From: Marsupella aquatica
Lineage: Eukaryota; Plantae; Marchantiophyta
Assembly: GCA_973895155.1 (NCBI GenBank)
Contig: OZ316892.1
Coordinates: 1,987,223-2,051,222 of the forward strand
DNA: 64,000 nucleotides
Reading direction: 5' to 3'
Numbering within the stretch: position 1 is the stretch's first letter; every line of letters starts with the position of its first letter. Under the pieces are notes generated by a model, which saw only the letters and a list, made by a program, of their open reading frames with translations, had not been told where the DNA came from and made no database searches. The position numbers were made by a program, and so were the translations under genes. Of the stretch, positions 11,005-64,000 are shown one piece after another.

Positions 11005-12589
11005 ACATTGCACGGTTCTATCTAAGAGAGATGGGTTATAAGGCCAAGAAGTCCTAAACAATGCACCCACCCTAAGGGCTGTCTTGCATGTGCAAGAGTC
11101 CTGAAAAAAGTGACCCTTTGCAGCCCACGGATGTCGGCAAAATACAATCAAGAAGAGCTTACGTGTGCCGTGCTTACTCAATCGCGTTTACTTCTTCGTC
11201 TTTGGCACCGCAAATTGTACAGGGCAGGATCAGCTGCCGTTTTGTTTTATTTGCAGTTCAAAGTTCGGGACCTCAAGGGCCGGAAAATTCCCGGCCCTTG
11301 CCCTTGCATATCCTCTAAAGCCGCTGTCACGACTGCCGGCCTGTCACTGCATTTACAAATGCCACGGGTTTCAGTTTAGGGCCGGAACACCAAGGACTTG
11401 TCACATGCAAGACGGCCCTAAAGGTGATCCCCTACCCCAAAAAGTGCAATACTTACTCTCTCGAAAAATTTCAAGCACTTATAAGTGGGCTTGTCTGTAG
11501 CTGTCTGTCATTGTGTTCCTACTGATAAGTGTTCTGGTCATCAGTGATAAGGGAAGAACGAGAATCGTTGCAGTTATCCAGGCTTTGCGAGTGTGCACTT
11601 AGCGAGAGACGACTATGTGTCGTGGGGTACATTTGACTTGGTTTGTGCACAACATGATGACCCAAAACCTGTCAATGCCACGAGTTACAGTTATTTTTCT
11701 ACAGCAACTTTTCATTGTTTGACGTTTGTGAAGCACGGTACTCTGTACTTGGGACTTAGCATTCAAGCATTGCAGAACCATTTGTAAATGAATTCTGTGG
11801 TGATGATGCAAGTCCGATTTTTGGAGAACGGGCACGCTTTGCATGAACAGAACGATACAGAAAAGTAGAAAAGCAAGGGAGGGAGGGAGTACTGGAGTAG
11901 GATGGTCGATCCGCTTTCTGCCTGCCGATTGAAGAAGGCCACCGAATACAATTAGGACAGTGATTATGGGCAGTAGACCTGGCTGTAGCTTGGTTGGACA
12001 AGTTTAAAAAGATCTGTTGTGACTACCGAAATCAAAGAATGCAATCTACACAAACCACAGTCGGACAACTCCTTCTGCTATAAATAGTCCGAACGGTTCG
12101 TAACGTTCATTGTTAGAGAAGACTTCGATGAATGGCGTCGTGGACTCGTGGCGATGGATCTCGAAGAGACAGTTGGAGAAAACAGCGGCGCTCTAAAGAA
12201 AGGGGCGAAAATCGAGGGAGATTAGCTGAATATCGATGCAGCATTAACTGAAAGGCTGATTCAAGAAGTTGCCCAACGTGTTCATTCGCCGTCAAGCATT
12301 GACCTAGACATTAGAATCAATTGTGGCCTATATTTGATTCGCAAGCCATATATATCGATCTCGTTCGTCTCATGGGTCATCACGTTTCGAAGGGGCTTCA
12401 AGTTTTAATTCTGTCTACTGTAGCTACCGGCCAGGTGAAGGAGTGGACTACTATTGATCCACCTGAATAATTGCAAACCTTTTCTAGGTCGGTAAGGACG
12501 TACCGTATTCGAGAGAATAGATTTTAGTCTGAAGCAATGCCAGGCCGGCCTCTTTGAAGTAATACATTGTGCAAGGGGAGGCAATCTAT

Positions 12590-58789: not shown

Positions 58790-59418
58790 TACATGGACTT
58801 GTCCGACAAATGAGGCGACTTGTCCGACAAATGACGGGTCTGGACTCCGACGTCCGACATTTGTCACACGAGGTCCCGGTCCGGCCCCGACCGGCCCACA
58901 CCCCGGCCTGACCCGGCCTGGCCCGAGCCCAACCCGGCCCCGCCGACGACCCCGACCTTACCCTATCCCGCCCCGACCCGGCCCGGACCCCAAACCGGGG
59001 GGCTGGCTCACTAAACCGGGAGAGTCCGGGACCCGGCCAGGAAGGGTTTGGGAAAGTTTGGGCAGGTTTGAACTGACGGACAAGTTGTCGTGTTGTCGGA
59101 CACGACAACTTTGACAACACGACAATTTGTCATTTGTTGGCTCCAAAAGGGGTCAAATTTTGGATATTTGCTTACATTTCTCGGCCGAACGGGAAATGCC
59201 GGGACAGGCCAGGGTAGGCCGGGGTCAGGGCCGAGACCGGGGACAGGGTCAGGGCGGGGTGTGAGCCGTCCGGGGCCGGGACGACCGGGTGTGACACATG
59301 TTGGATGTCGGAGTCCAAACCCGGCACCGGCTGGGGAATATAGCAAATATGTGACAGTTGACCCCTTTTGGAGCCGACAAATGACAAGTTGTCGTGTCTG
59401 ACAACATGACAACATGTC
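58790..59418. mobile_element. GC-rich foldback/MITE-like element with overlapping inverted repeats
   Basis: 58836-58945 is inverted relative to 59217-59325, and 59106-59172 is inverted relative to 59341-59410. The motif gtccgac/gacaac recurs. No coding capacity is recognisable. Confidence 0.7.
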
Positions 59419-59419
59419 C

Positions 59420-62400
59420 TTCAGTAGAAACCGTACATCTGCCTCCCACCGACCCACACATGCTCCTACAATAATAGATCCAGGATCAATAAACAATTCC
59501 TCCCTGCCTTTAAAGGCTTGGTTCCATGGGCCAAGGGCAGGGAGTACAATCACTCCCTCTGACACCCCTGGGCCCAAATATGTTGTATTCCAAGGTACAC
59601 ACAGTATTTTAAATGTAGGTTAAAAAAAACCTTTACTTAGTCTTGTGAAAAAGGAAGTAAATGCTTGATAGGACCCTTGCCAAAACAAAATTTACGTGAT
59701 AGGCCCCTACTAAACCTTTGTTACAAACTAGGCCCCCCACAAAATTGTTGTTACCAACTAGGCCACCTACATAGTTTCCATACATATGGTTTTCATGCGG
59801 TGTCTAAAGGTATGGTCAACCATACATTTTCCACCGTAATCCATCACACGTTGGGTCACAATCCACCGAGCGTGCATTTATGCTTGAAGACATAATGGTT
59901 ATGTCTTCACATGGTTATAGAGTCTTAAAGGATTCACCGCTACACGATAGTGGGTTTGCACAACATGTCATGACATATAGTATCGTAGCCATAGTGTATC
60001 GAAAACATACAAGTCACCGGCAATGCATATGTGCAAGCTGCTAGCAACCAACATCCTGAGAAAAAAGTCCAATCACATTCACAAGTGCCAAGAAAAAGCA
60101 ACTGAGATGGTATGTACGTAGTGGAGGTGTAAACCTCTGTATCCCCCCCCAGACCACAATCAAAAGGAGGGCTGAAGAAAATTCAGGTAGCACGTGGAGC
60201 ACAGGAAGGGCAAAACCATAACCCTTCTGGCACCTGGGTAAGTTCAGGCCGAAGGCAGAAAAGATGGTACCCTCCATTGCAATTGTCACACAGCAGCATC
60301 TGGTCAGCATCATCAATTCGCAAACACACTTTGCAAGGGTAGTCCACAGGTGGAATCCAAGTAGAAGTCACAATGGTGGGATCCAGGTTAGGCAGATGAC
60401 AAGGGGCGCAATTCTTGGCATTGTCAGCAATTGTGCGCCCATCTGCCCCTTGTAACTCTAGCACTCCAGACGGTCGAATAGCTTTGACCCTGAGAATAGT
60501 GCGACTGGTAGAGGTGTCCAGGGTGTCGTTAGCTTGCCGCTGCAAGTACACAAAATCTCCCACTTCAAACTTCCTGACCTTGGGCTGAAAAGTGCCCCCT
60601 CGTGTGTGTGCATAACGCAGTGTGTCCCTGTGCTGTGTAATGGCCAAATTCTCCATGGCCATGGGCATAACCCTCCTGAATAGGGCAGCCCTCTCAGAGA
60701 TCACATCAGACCAAGTCACAGCTGAATCCAAGTCCACCACCTGAAGCATGTGAGAAGCAATAGTAGAAGGTGGAACTGGGTGACGACCAAACAACAAGAA
60801 GTAGGGAGAAAAGTTAGACAGGGATGCATGTCTGGACATCCTATACCCCATGGCAATGTAGGGTAAGGCCAGGTCCCAATCCTCCTTGTTTTTGGTGAGG
60901 CAGATCTTCCGAAGGCCCTTCTTGCATGTCTGAACCATGCGCTCTGCCAAGCCATCTGCCTGTGGGTGATCTCGTGATGTCCGGCGATGATCAATGAGAG
61001 CCTGATCAAGCAGCTCCTGGAACTCTCCTCTAAACTCTGAGCCCTGGTCAGTGAGACATTCTGCACAAGCTCCAAAGCGGCTGAGAACTTGTTGCAAGAA
61101 TGCCTGGCTGGTGCTACGGGAGGTCTTATCCGGCAATGCTACAAGTTCTATCCACTTGGAGAAATGCTCTATCATGATCATGATGTAGAGATTACCCCGA
61201 GATGTGAGGGGTATGTAATTCTCCAGCCAAATCACATGACCAACGATAAAACATGCCCTGAATAGGGAGTGGATGAAGTGTGGGTTGCCGAGATGTGAAA
61301 GAAGTCCTTACCCTATCACACTGCTCACACCGGGCAATAACATCTCGAACCTGGCCATGCATGCCTCTCCAATGATAATGGGGGACCAAGAGGCTATAAG
61401 TCCTCTTAACACCAAAATGACCAAGCTCAGAATGTACCTTACGGATAAGGCCAACCCTCTCATGAATGGGTGGAACCACCACTTCCCTGTCTGGCAAGCA
61501 GCGCACAAGATGATCTCCCTTCCACAATTAGCGCTTGGACCTTTGCTGAATTCGGTCTCTCTGGGCAGCAGTAACATGGGTGGGGTACTCCCCATCCTGC
61601 AGAAATCTCAGAGTGTCGCTGTCCTCCCATATGTCCACCACAGGTTGGTCAACAATGTAGCATGGCAGCAAAGCAAGATAGGTAGATGCATGAAATGTAG
61701 GCAGGGTGAAAACCTGGTCAAAATCCTGCCGTGCATCTGAGGGATCATCAGAGGCAATCAAAGGGCTGCGGGACATAGTGTCAGCATTTTGATGTGTCAC
61801 ACCAGGCCTATGAATTACCTCAAAATCATACTCCTGGAGTATGAGTGCCCAACGAGCAAGCTTGCCAGTAAGCTTGTCGTTGGTCATCAACCATTTCAAG
61901 GGCTGGTGGTCGGTGTAGAGAACAAACTTGGTCCCATAGAGGTAGGGCCTGTAATGTATGACAGCCCACACAACAGCAAGGCATTCACCCTCATAAGAAG
62001 AATAATGACTCTCTGCCTGATTGTTGCTCCTGGATGCATAGGCAATGACGTACTCTTTACCTTCCTCATCATGCTGGCCTAGAATGGCACCAATCCCAAG
62101 GGCACTCCAATCTGTGTGTAGCACAAAGACCTTGTTGAAATCAGGTCTTCTCAGCACTGGGTATTCTGAGAGCTTCTCCTTCAAAGTGGCAAATGTTGCC
62201 TCAACATCTGTACTCCATGTCCAAGTCACATTCTTTTTCAACAAAGCATACAATGGGTGTGCAATGGTACTGAAATCTTTGATGTAGATCCGGTAGTAAT
62301 TGCACAACCCAATAAAACTCCTCAAAGTGTGAACATCGGTAGGAGTGGGCATTTCCAAGATGGATACCACCTTGGCCCAGTGAGCCATGGTTCCATTTGG

Positions 62401-64000
62401 AAGAATGCGATGCCCAAGATATACGACTGATCTGACAGCAAATTCACACTTCTTGGGGTGTATGTTTAGGTTCACCTTCTTAAGCCTTATGAATAGCTCC
62501 TCAAGGTCAAGTAGATGCTGGTCAAATCCTTTGTTGTGGACCAACACATCATCAATGTAGCATTTCAGAAACTCAGCACCTTGAAGAACCTGGTCCATGA
62601 CTCTTTGAAAGAATATGGGCGCATTCTTCAAGCCAAATGGCATCACCAACCACTCCCATAGTTGGTTACTACCATGGAAAGTTGTTTTCTTGCGGTCCTT
62701 TGCAAGCAGCAAAATCTGGTTGAAGCCTTGCCTTAGATCCACAAGAGTGAAGATGTCTGAGTCTCCAATGCTGTCAAATAGCTCCTCTGGCCGCGGCATG
62801 GGGTACCTGTCCTGGGGTGTGACCAGGTTCAATGGCTTGTAGTCCCCACACATGCGCTTCTCTGTCCACAATCCACTGGAATCCTTCTTTGCTGGCATCA
62901 CTGTAGCTGCCGCAAAATCTGATGTAGATGGCTGAATAAGACCAGCTTCATAAAGCTCTTGGCACCTCTCATCCACCAGCTGCCACTCATGCTTACTCAA
63001 ACGGTGTCTCCGCCTAAAGATAGGTGTTTCATCAGCCAACTCAATGGAGAACTGCATAGTCTTGCACTTACCCAAGTCCTTCATAGAGAAAGCAAACACA
63101 TTCTCATGCTTGAGGAGCAAATTCAGCAGCTGGTCCCCGAGCTGGTCCTTCTGTCTTTTACTCAGGTGGTTGCCCATGATAAATGTGTAGTTGGCAACAC
63201 TAGGAATAGGACCTGATGTACTCATGCTTGAAGAGCCAGAAGTGCCAGCCTCTCCACTGTCCAAGCTGCTAGCATGCTGCTGATAAGGTGATGAGGCCTC
63301 TCCAAGGCCTGCTGTATCTGTTGCTCTGGTCTGATCCACACCATGAAACTCAGAAATAATGTCAGCCACATTACAAGGGACCTCCTCCCCCCCAACACTT
63401 GGACTGAAGCGGTGAGTGTTGAATAGAGGTAAGTGCACCTGGTCTGGATGCCATGTAGCAGCACTGTGGAGGGGTAGGGCTGGAGCTCCTAATGCTGGAG
63501 GAATGTACATCTGAAAAAGGATGCAAGTGACCAGAAGCCAAGTGAGAGCATTGAGATCCATTACCCTGCCAAGTAAAGCATTCCTGGCCAGCCTGGTGAT
63601 TTTGGTGTGACCTGTAGTACCGGGTTGGAAGCCCATAGCCCGTTCTCTCTCCTCAGGACTAGGTTCATCCCATGTACCGGTAGAATGTCGATAAACCAGC
63701 CCAGGACCATCACCCTGAAAAGCATGTGCACCTGGAAAGGACACAAATGTAGGCCAAGCAGCACGGGGTTGTCCAATGGTATTAGCTGGATACCAAGGTG
63801 CTGGCTCTTGCCGTGTAACTGGTTGGCAAGAACTGTCAGGATCCAAAATCTGGTCCACTGTAAGGTTAGTGTCCCTAGATGTGTGGTGAAGAGCCATCTC
63901 CAGCAAGGAAGGTGGTGCAAGGTTAGTCCAAAAGTTACGAAGACGATGTGCATAAGAACCACAGTGCACTGCATCAATGAGAAGGGGTGGTCCCAAGTAG
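59420..64000 (-). mobile_element. Ty3/Gypsy LTR retrotransposon (5' part outside the window) carrying a C5 DNA methyltransferase and a PHD finger
   Basis: Domain order RT-RNaseH-INT is Gypsy-type. The 3' LTR boundary is not resolved. Confidence 0.9.
60183..64000 (-). pseudogene. pol polyprotein: [DNMT C-terminal half]-RT-RNase H-integrase-PHD; in-frame stop at 61528-61530 and frameshift at ~61212
   Basis: RT: RMCGDY..LN, DLRQGFNQ, MPFGLKNAP, YIDD. RNase H: TDWS..GIG, YEGECLA, TDHQPL, NADTMSR. INT: H..GH...CEQC, DLAG, TDQGSEF, GLAER. PHD: CKVC..CDNC...H..C...WFCPSC. DNMT: IDAVHCGSYAHRLRNFWTNL, PEERERAMGF, RNALLGRVMD. Confidence 0.9.

Follow-up and report, generated by a model that had tools for sequence, protein, structure and literature searches.

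What does a PHD finger do at the end of a retrotransposon integrase, and does it matter that a DNA methyltransferase (DNMT) is encoded on the same polyprotein? The question is raised by a decayed Ty3/Gypsy pol gene in a 64,000-nucleotide stretch of contig OZ316892.1 from the liverwort Marsupella aquatica (positions 1,987,223 to 2,051,222; hereafter, the window). A sequence-only reading of this DNA had proposed that the integrase ends in a complete C4HC3 PHD finger of the kind that reads unmodified histone H3, and that finger and methyltransferase resemble, in their logic, the ADD and methyltransferase domains of DNMT3. We find that the PHD finger closes the integrase, as a conserved C-terminal module, throughout a green-lineage family of elements. 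The evidence for this is given below, followed by an assessment of the likely ligand of the finger and of the role that it may play.

The finger and its conservation

The PHD finger comprises 45 residues encoded on the minus strand at positions 60201–60335, in exact agreement with the residues quoted in the sequence-only reading, which had located the finger correctly and had left out the strand; the plus strand of this interval gives a nonsense translation. The finger belongs to open reading frame (ORF) P0001 (minus strand, 60183–61307, 374 amino acids), which ends ...DYPCKVCLRIDDADQMLLCDNCNGGYHLFCLRPELTQVPEGLWFCPSCAPRAT*, the 45-residue finger being followed by APRAT and the stop codon. Pfam matches PF00628 to residues 325–369 over the entire profile (positions 1–47 of 47; E 5e-12, 46.1 bits with a cut-off of 24). 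A regular expression for the C4HC3 arrangement (C-x2-C-x(7-25)-C-x2-C-x(3-6)-H-x2-C-x(8-35)-C-x2-C), scanned through all six frames, has a single match in the 64-kb window, and this match is the same finger. The complete C4HC3 finger that had been read from the sequence is thereby confirmed. The same ORF carries the integrase core (rve, residues 31–115 by Pfam), and since the finger lies five residues from the stop codon it is the last domain of the integrase, occupying, as had also been proposed, the place of the chromovirus chromodomain. All eight zinc ligands are invariant in the 116 aligned members of the family, which rules out a chance match.

An AlphaFold2 model of P0001 was calculated from 45 sequences (mean predicted local distance difference test score, pLDDT, 80.6). 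The strands of an SH3-like domain are placed at residues 252–302 (block-mean pLDDT 61–91) and are followed by a linker of lower confidence (residues 311–320, pLDDT 59), behind which the finger is modelled with pLDDT 85–88. The integrase part of the model resembles the integrases of prototype foamy virus (PFV) and Ty3 in a Foldseek search; with the whole integrase-PHD model as the query, Foldseek returned integrases only and no match for the finger.

Relatives were drawn from two sources. The protein homologues are the best 120 longer ones among 225 with E ≤ 1e-10, and the metagenome loci are the best 80 of 496 that encode relatives, with 70–84% identity to the integrase-PHD of the window; these loci come from few samples and are mostly dead copies. 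Names of hosts are database labels. In precomputed Pfam lists PF00628 accompanies integrase domains in 118 of the 120 homologues, and one of the two exceptions (P0089) stops inside the integrase. The C4HC3 expression matches 115 of the 120, and these together with the window make up the alignment of 116 sequences. The sequence-only reading had staked itself on the presence of the PHD in other copies, and all 74 metagenome loci that continue for at least 160 nt past the integrase C-terminal domain have a tblastn match to the finger. Sixty-six loci cover the whole finger without gaps. All of them encode recognisable fingers, 30 with the full set of eight ligands and 32 with an internal stop, and the ligand losses and stops arise because these copies have decayed.

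Selection on the finger was gauged from the ratio of non-synonymous to synonymous differences per site (pN/pS), with the window set against the column majority of the family of loci. The finger scores 0.089, the integrase core 0.067 and the integrase C-terminal domain 0.097; the ratio is taken from raw pN and pS, as synonymous sites are saturated (NG86 dS is undefined), and for the 45-codon finger, where a pS above 1 is a small-sample artefact, it is good to an order of magnitude only. The ratio of the finger is close to those of the integrase, and selection has therefore kept the finger about as strongly as the integrase itself.

The decay of the loci has a pattern of its own. Across 837 aligned nt of the integrase region in 74 loci and the window, G:C to A:T transitions make up 74% (3128/4224) of the differences from the column majority, and their rate per site per copy is 0.185 in CG, 0.241 in CHG and 0.063 in CHH contexts (L001–L080). 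The pattern is like that left by deamination where CG and CHG sites are methylated in the plant manner, and such deamination-like transitions explain the many Cys-to-Tyr and Gln/Trp-to-stop changes in the fingers of the loci.

Among the named hosts, Calypogeia fissa provides the closest homologues of the integrase-PHD (88–90% identity). Sphagnum magellanicum and further Calypogeia proteins are among the named hosts in a search among proteins of similar length. Three Klebsormidium nitens proteins (P0192, P0254 and P0275) are 50–56% identical to the integrase-PHD of the window, and the two on which Pfam was re-run (P0192 and P0254) have the order H2C2-rve-PHD. A cluster look-up retrieved a Coleochaete scutata transcript of 1083 amino acids with reverse transcriptase, RNase H, integrase and PHD in this order; Hariotina reticulata is also named, and Haematococcus, Chromochloris and Volvox are among the named hosts of PHD-bearing homologues. 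In the ESM Atlas, the cluster nearest to P0001 (score 0.92, 80 members) has a PHD in 99% and rve in 94% of its members, and its commonest recorded phylum is Mollusca. Integrase-PHD fusions may thus occur outside the green lineage as well.

Position of the methyltransferase domain

Upstream of P0001 lies P0002, a minus-strand ORF (61528–63999) that encodes RVT_1, two RNase H families and, at its N-terminus, about 165 DNMT-like residues that run off the end of the window. The fragment contains motifs resembling VIII, IX and X (AHRLRNFW, ERERAMGF and LGRVMD) and is 31–49% identical to a region found in 52 of the 120 homologues. The corresponding region matches the DNA_methylase family PF00145 in two relatives, locus L032 and protein P0163, and that of L032 has DNMT3A, DNMT3C and DNMT3B as its best PDB matches (E 4e-9). 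The window fragment by itself gives neither a Pfam match nor a PDB match, and for the latter it is too short. The domain order of the window element is DNMT3-like, reverse transcriptase, RNase H, integrase and PHD. In P0163, an intact relative of 1471 amino acids that is 75% identical to the window copy over 830 aligned positions, everything from DNMT through PHD is encoded in one uninterrupted ORF; this relative, and the window fragment that is in frame with the reverse transcriptase, uphold the earlier proposal of a DNA methyltransferase, here a DNMT3-like one, on the same polyprotein. A protein search with P0163 for a K. nitens protein that combines the two domains gave no match in that species.

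The order of domains across the family was established by BLAST with segments of the window together with regular expressions, and was set against a tree of the integrase region with 119 rows, obtained by a quick maximum-likelihood search. The main split in this tree has moderate support (SH-aLRT 83). Absence of the DNMT was counted solely where enough upstream sequence was at hand, truncated proteins being uninformative in this respect. The first clade (36 rows) includes the window and Coleochaete. Here no DNMT is seen between RNase H and integrase, and all three members with sufficient upstream sequence (the window, P0007 and P0083) have it before the reverse transcriptase. P0163 and P0035 have it in the same upstream position, as do 29 of the 35 metagenome loci that could be evaluated, and the six loci that lack an upstream DNMT also lack other upstream parts. 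The PHD is terminal in this clade, with a tail of 0–14 residues in most members.

The second, chlorophyte clade (83 rows) includes Volvox, Haematococcus, Hariotina and Chromochloris. Forty-nine of its rows have the DNMT after RNase H and ahead of the integrase, giving the order reverse transcriptase, RNase H, DNMT, integrase, PHD. In several sublineages that retain the PHD no DNMT was detected; P0051 and P0059, for example, have no DNMT match despite more than 600 residues upstream of the reverse transcriptase, and both keep the PHD. Across the examined family the PHD invariably follows the integrase C-terminal domain. Most rows of the second clade, including P0030, P0041, P0064, P0095 and P0108, continue for 100–490 more residues past the PHD, mostly without a further family in the precomputed Pfam lists; these lists name G-patch (P0024 and P0081) and PHD_2 (P0091) in a few members.

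A protease is encoded upstream in relatives of the window element. One of them is P0304, a complete ORF of 2352 amino acids, which carries a gag CCHC knuckle, an aspartic protease (E 1.2e-8), DNMT, reverse transcriptase, RNase H, H2C2 and rve, and L032 has a weak protease match (E 1.4e-3) ahead of its DNMT. P0304 is 46% identical to P0163 and ends about 217 residues past rve, approximately where the finger would start.

Motif IV of the DNMT reads G-W-E-C-Q in 24 of 44 transposon homologues and has the canonical P-C in six (WPCQ in four, FPCN in one and PPCQ in one); in P0163 it is located at residues ~130–140. G-W-E-C-Q occurs in DNMT domains at both positions, before the reverse transcriptase and between RNase H and integrase, which suggests that the DNMT was acquired once and then moved within the element.

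Likely ligand and role of the finger

The finger was compared by phmmer with all PDB chains, and the following refers to the best 60 matches. They include both fingers of CHD4 and the finger of WSTF (1f62, E 1.3e-16). Also present are KDM5D, Lid, KDM5A and KDM5B PHD1, BAZ2A/B, ATXR5, EHD3, MLL3/KMT2D, KAT6A/B, DPF2/3, ORC1B, UHRF1/2, PHF21A (BHC80), AIRE and PHF12. Fingers of ING, BPTF and TAF3 are not among these 60, nor are solved chains of DNMT3, DNMT3L or ATRX. The matches to WSTF, KDM5 PHD1, BAZ2A/B and CHD4 extend over the whole finger (E 1e-16 to 3e-12) and have in common with it the pattern C-x-V-C...D-x-(M/L)-L-L-C-D-x-C...(Y/F)-H-x-(F/Y)-C-L-x-P...P-x-G-x-W-x-C-P-x-C, although those fingers reside in host chromatin enzymes and that of the window in a transposon integrase. 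The assignment to the BAZ2, KDM5 PHD1 and UHRF1 type made in the sequence-only reading agrees with these results, all three being among the matches.

Readers of unmodified H3 Lys4 named in the review PMC3241642 are BHC80, AIRE, CHD4, DPF3, DNMT3A and DNMT3L, and binding of H3 unmethylated at Lys4 (H3K4me0) is reported for KDM5B PHD1 and AIRE PHD1. The same review gives as hallmarks of such readers the lack of an aromatic cage, a hydrophobic residue before the third Cys and an acidic cluster before the first. The residue before the third Cys is Leu in the window and L, I, V or F in 115 of the 116 family members (L 96, I 11, V 4, F 4). The Trp of the aromatic cage is situated two residues before the His. 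In the window this position is Gly (N-G-G-Y-H), as it is in 108 of 116 relatives, and the cage Trp is accordingly absent, as had been noted earlier. The finger further conserves M-L-L-C-D and P-x-G-x-W-x-C (P 115, G 96 and W 109 of 116), positions that in solved fingers provide the pocket for H3 Ala1 and the strand that pairs with the H3 tail. Judged by its sequence, the finger groups with solved cage-less PHD fingers that bind unmodified H3.

Several observations weigh against H3K4me0 as the ligand. Ahead of the first Cys the expected acidic cluster is weakly developed, consisting in the window of a single Asp at −3 (V-D-Y-P-C); this position is acidic in 60 of 116 sequences (D 54, E 6), and the acidic run DDAD is found further on, in the Cys2-Cys3 loop. 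A Trp stands directly before the His in 64 of 116 relatives, one position off the cage Trp. WSTF, the closest single-domain match, has no citable histone ligand. UHRF1 reads Arg2, and the DPF and KAT6 fingers read acyl-Lys14. The second finger of CHD4 prefers K9me3 or K9ac (PMC3241642).

On balance we lean, with confidence a little better than even, towards a role in integration: the PHD at the integrase end of this DNMT3-carrying Gypsy family would tether the intasome to nucleosomes by binding H3 tails that lack methylation at Lys4. In such a scheme, processing by the protease would yield integrase-PHD as a mature protein, the finger of which would bind the H3 N-terminus with Lys4 unmethylated. 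Insertion would then be biased away from promoters marked by H3K4me3, much as the chromodomain steers chromoviruses to H3K9-methylated chromatin. Wherever the DNMT lies, and even where none is detected, the PHD accompanies the integrase, and relatives encode a protease; a mature integrase-PHD that acts as the tethering protein is therefore the simplest reading.

Two known systems bear on this proposal. The integrase of chromoviruses ends in a chromodomain that directs them to H3K9-methylated chromatin (Gao et al. 2008, as cited in later papers). Common to both cases is a small domain of histone-reader type that follows an SH3-like domain at the integrase C-terminus and presumably takes part in the choice of insertion chromatin; the window family differs in having a PHD rather than a chromodomain, with H3K4me0 rather than H3K9me as the likely ligand. 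No Chromo family appears in Pfam scans of the ORFs of the window or in the precomputed lists of the 120 homologues. The second system is Gypsy-7a_cRei of Chlamydomonas, a green-alga Gypsy element whose Gag-Pol polyprotein carries a PHD suspected of a role in target choice, and whose new insertions are intergenic 2.6 times more often than expected (PMC9940879). This bias lends indirect support to targeting by the PHD, the likeness of that element to the window family being one of description only. Among reader domains, PHD and Chromo are reported as the commonest fusion partners of retrotransposon domains (PMC9940879, PMC6673714 and preprint 10.1101/2021.11.30.470311).

It is possible, although distinctly less probable than tethering through H3K4me0, that the finger binds some other partner, such as a histone mark of another kind, a chromatin protein of the host, a nucleic acid (DNA or RNA) or a part of the intasome, and contributes to assembly, to nuclear entry or to targeting of another sort. 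Some PHD fingers do bind non-histone proteins (PMC3241642), and the weak acidic cluster, the unexplained Trp that 64 of the 116 relatives have in front of the His and close matches such as WSTF that lack a citable ligand all fit this possibility. It is harder to reconcile with the conservation of M-L-L-C-D and P-x-G-x-W-x-C, given the parts that these positions take in the H3 pocket and strand, and with the fact that all of the best solved relatives are H3 tail binders or paralogues of such.

Less probable again is that the PHD and the DNMT3-like domain constitute a reader-writer pair like the ADD of DNMT3A/3L, directing or licensing methylation of new cDNA or of its flanks in H3K4-unmethylated chromatin. 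The two domains do share the uninterrupted ORF of P0163, a DNMT can be detected in 52 of the 120 homologues with a PHD and, among the evaluable loci, in 29 of 35, and the PDB matches of L032 mark it as of the DNMT3 type. In DNMT3A and DNMT3L a PHD-type reader of H3K4me0 is encoded with a DNMT3-type catalytic domain, and the finger of the window is by its sequence of the unmodified-H3 type, as are their ADD fingers (PMC3241642). The ADD, however, is a composite of a GATA-like finger and a PHD that adjoins the catalytic domain within one protein, whereas the window family has a single canonical PHD on the integrase, and its best 60 PDB matches include no chain of DNMT3, DNMT3L or ATRX. In the clade of the window the two domains are some 1,100 residues apart, with reverse transcriptase, RNase H and integrase between them, and with the protease upstream, processing would likely separate the DNMT from integrase-PHD, leaving the finger past a likely processing boundary. 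The chlorophyte clade, in which the DNMT directly precedes integrase-PHD, is a different case, and here a DNMT-integrase-PHD product is conceivable. Throughout, the DNMT shifts position while the PHD does not, and P0051 and P0059 keep the PHD without a detected DNMT; a finger fixed to the integrase, beside a DNMT that moves or is absent, makes integration targeting likelier than an ADD-like partnership. The architecture thus argues against ADD-like coupling as the primary role, and the analogy to ADD and methyltransferase drawn in the sequence-only reading is not supported.

That the finger is an accident of the window copy without a role in the element, picked up with a host exon or arising by chance as a pattern of cysteines, is refuted by its presence in 74 of 74 loci and 118 of 120 homologues, the invariant ligands and a pN/pS of 0.09, and nothing was found in its favour.

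The window copy, related elements and implications

The window copy is dead and truncated, and is the sole copy in the 64-kb window; the coordinates of its parts are collected in Table 1. Compared with P0163 it has one in-frame stop (61528–61530) and one frameshift (~61216–61226), because of which its PHD is no longer in one frame with the reverse transcriptase and DNMT. At the stop, ORFs 61528–63999 and 61192–61527 adjoin in one frame, and the tblastn match of P0163 runs through the TAA between them. At the frameshift, the match of query residues 201–1129 in frame −2 ends at 61216 and that of residues 1125–1467 in frame −3 starts at 61226. The H2C2 region was assigned by its match to the PF17921 part of P0163, and D87 and E122 of P0001 are invariant across 45 sequences.

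Table 1. Coordinates of the domains and lesions of the Gypsy pol gene in the window, from upstream to downstream on the minus strand
Feature	Positions	Strand	Basis and remarks
DNMT3-like cytosine-5 methyltransferase, C-terminal ~165 residues	63505..63999	-	Cut by window end; same frame as reverse transcriptase
Reverse transcriptase, PF00078 RVT_1	62404..62865	-	E 1.8e-26, residues 379-532 of P0002
RNase H, PF17917 (E 1e-38) and PF17919 (E 4.8e-32)	61828..62217	-	Residues 595-724 of P0002
Premature in-frame stop TAA, between RNase H and integrase zinc finger	61528..61530	-	Contiguous ORFs; tblastn with P0163
Integrase N-terminal H2C2 zinc-binding region, approximate limits	61300..61470	-	...HSELGHFG...HYHW...CEQCD; corresponds to P0163 residues 1045-1100 (PF17921)
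Frameshift in integrase core, near first catalytic Asp	61216..61226	-	tblastn frame switch against P0163
Integrase catalytic core rve, PF00665	60963..61217	-	E 6e-12; DDE second Asp = D87, Glu = E122 of P0001
Integrase C-terminal beta-strand (SH3-like) domain, then linker	60402..60554	-	AlphaFold2 model
PHD finger, C4HC3, final integrase domain	60201..60335	-	Pfam, regular expression, alignment, model
pol stop codon, 5 residues past last zinc ligand	60183..60185	-	ORF

The order of pol domains is that of Ty3/Gypsy elements, with reverse transcriptase, RNase H and rve in sequence and an integrase of the H2C2 and DDE kind. In place of a pair of identical long terminal repeats, the relatives L032, L057 and L018 are flanked by split direct repeats of the form A1...B1-A2-B2. 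In L032 (2497–11821) these are A1 at 2497–2788, B1 at 11168–11352, A2 at 11345–11636 and B2 at 11637–11821, and the partners are 92–94% identical. This is a DIRS/Ngaro-like arrangement, odd for an element with a DDE integrase. The 5' part of the window copy lies beyond position 64000, and no terminal or direct repeats were recognised 3' of pol in the window; on this side there is merely a 36-nt match to the start of the terminal block of L032. About 750 nt downstream of the pol stop codon, a foldback of ~600 bp (58832–59432) consists of nested inverted-repeat arms of 34–56 nt that are 82–88% complementary, with a GC-rich CCCGRC-like tract. It may be an insertion resembling a miniature inverted-repeat transposable element (MITE) that marks or disrupts the 3' end of the element.

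Neighbouring ORFs in the window encode a protein disulfide isomerase, a GMC oxidoreductase and an FAD monooxygenase. Between 49120 and 52265, on the minus strand, three adjacent ORFs correspond to a putative serine esterase/hydrolase (DUF676), an NB-ARC and a U-box protein. A hydrolase-NB-ARC arrangement characterises the HNL class, relatives of resistance genes that are known from liverworts, and as such it fits the Calypogeia-like identity of the transposon. Closer to the element, P0003 (55272–57497, minus strand, 741 residues) contains about a dozen degenerate acidic repeats (...EGTELVAASQKE...); it matches no Pfam family and has no counterpart among the 80 related loci.

The type of element to which the window copy belongs is known. 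KnitGypsy-Dnmt3 of Klebsormidium carries a DNMT3-type methyltransferase in its Gypsy pol ORF and is bounded by DIRS-like split direct repeats (de Mendoza et al. 2018, PMC5890265), and streptophyte 'Gypsy-DNMT3' elements are named in preprint 10.64898/2026.05.21.726589. The window family likewise has a DNMT3-type domain inside the pol ORF, and its relatives L032, L057 and L018 have the A1...B1-A2-B2 repeats, which the window copy does not show downstream. A possible further link is offered by the H2C2-rve-PHD proteins of K. nitens, which are 50–56% identical to the integrase of the window, the published elements being compared by description only. Their host is a charophyte, and that of the window a liverwort.

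PHD fingers in transposons are known as well. They are in print for retrotransposon polyproteins (PMC6673714, PMC9940879 and preprint 10.1101/2021.11.30.470311) and for Ginger1 transposases (PMC2836005). Unlike the window family, Gypsy-7a_cRei and the other PHD-bearing transposons come without mention of a DNMT in the accessible parts of these sources. Conversely, a PHD is not mentioned in the main text, legends and three supplementary files of PMC5890265, a statement that does not extend to the drawing in its Fig. 4c, nor in preprint 10.64898/2026.05.21.726589, and no text was found that mentions a PHD in DNMT-bearing Gypsy elements, figures lying outside this comparison. The PHD appears to be an undescribed, or at least unremarked, accessory domain of DNMT3-carrying Gypsy elements.

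A broader picture can be drawn, in which an old and large green-lineage clade possesses its own reader-writer pair of an H3K4me0-type PHD and a DNMT3-type methyltransferase, convergent with DNMT3A/3L. Its elements would pick H3K4-unmethylated chromatin and methylate the insertion or the neighbouring DNA, and in the chlorophyte branch all three activities could conceivably reside on one mature protein. We regard this picture as improbable.

Chromatin-guided integration is well documented for chromodomains and only suspected for PHD fingers on transposon integrases. The present family offers a natural test case, with a single small domain of reader type that always ends the integrase. Methylomes have been published for some of its hosts (Klebsormidium), and laboratory transposition of a PHD-bearing Gypsy element has been recorded in Chlamydomonas. 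DNMT3-carrying Gypsy elements appear to be more widespread than described, extending to land plants, as seen in the Calypogeia and Sphagnum homologues, and to many chlorophytes in another domain order, and the present data argue against their complete loss. If the PHD does read H3K4me0, these elements would combine both of the activities that define DNMT3-type de novo methylation.

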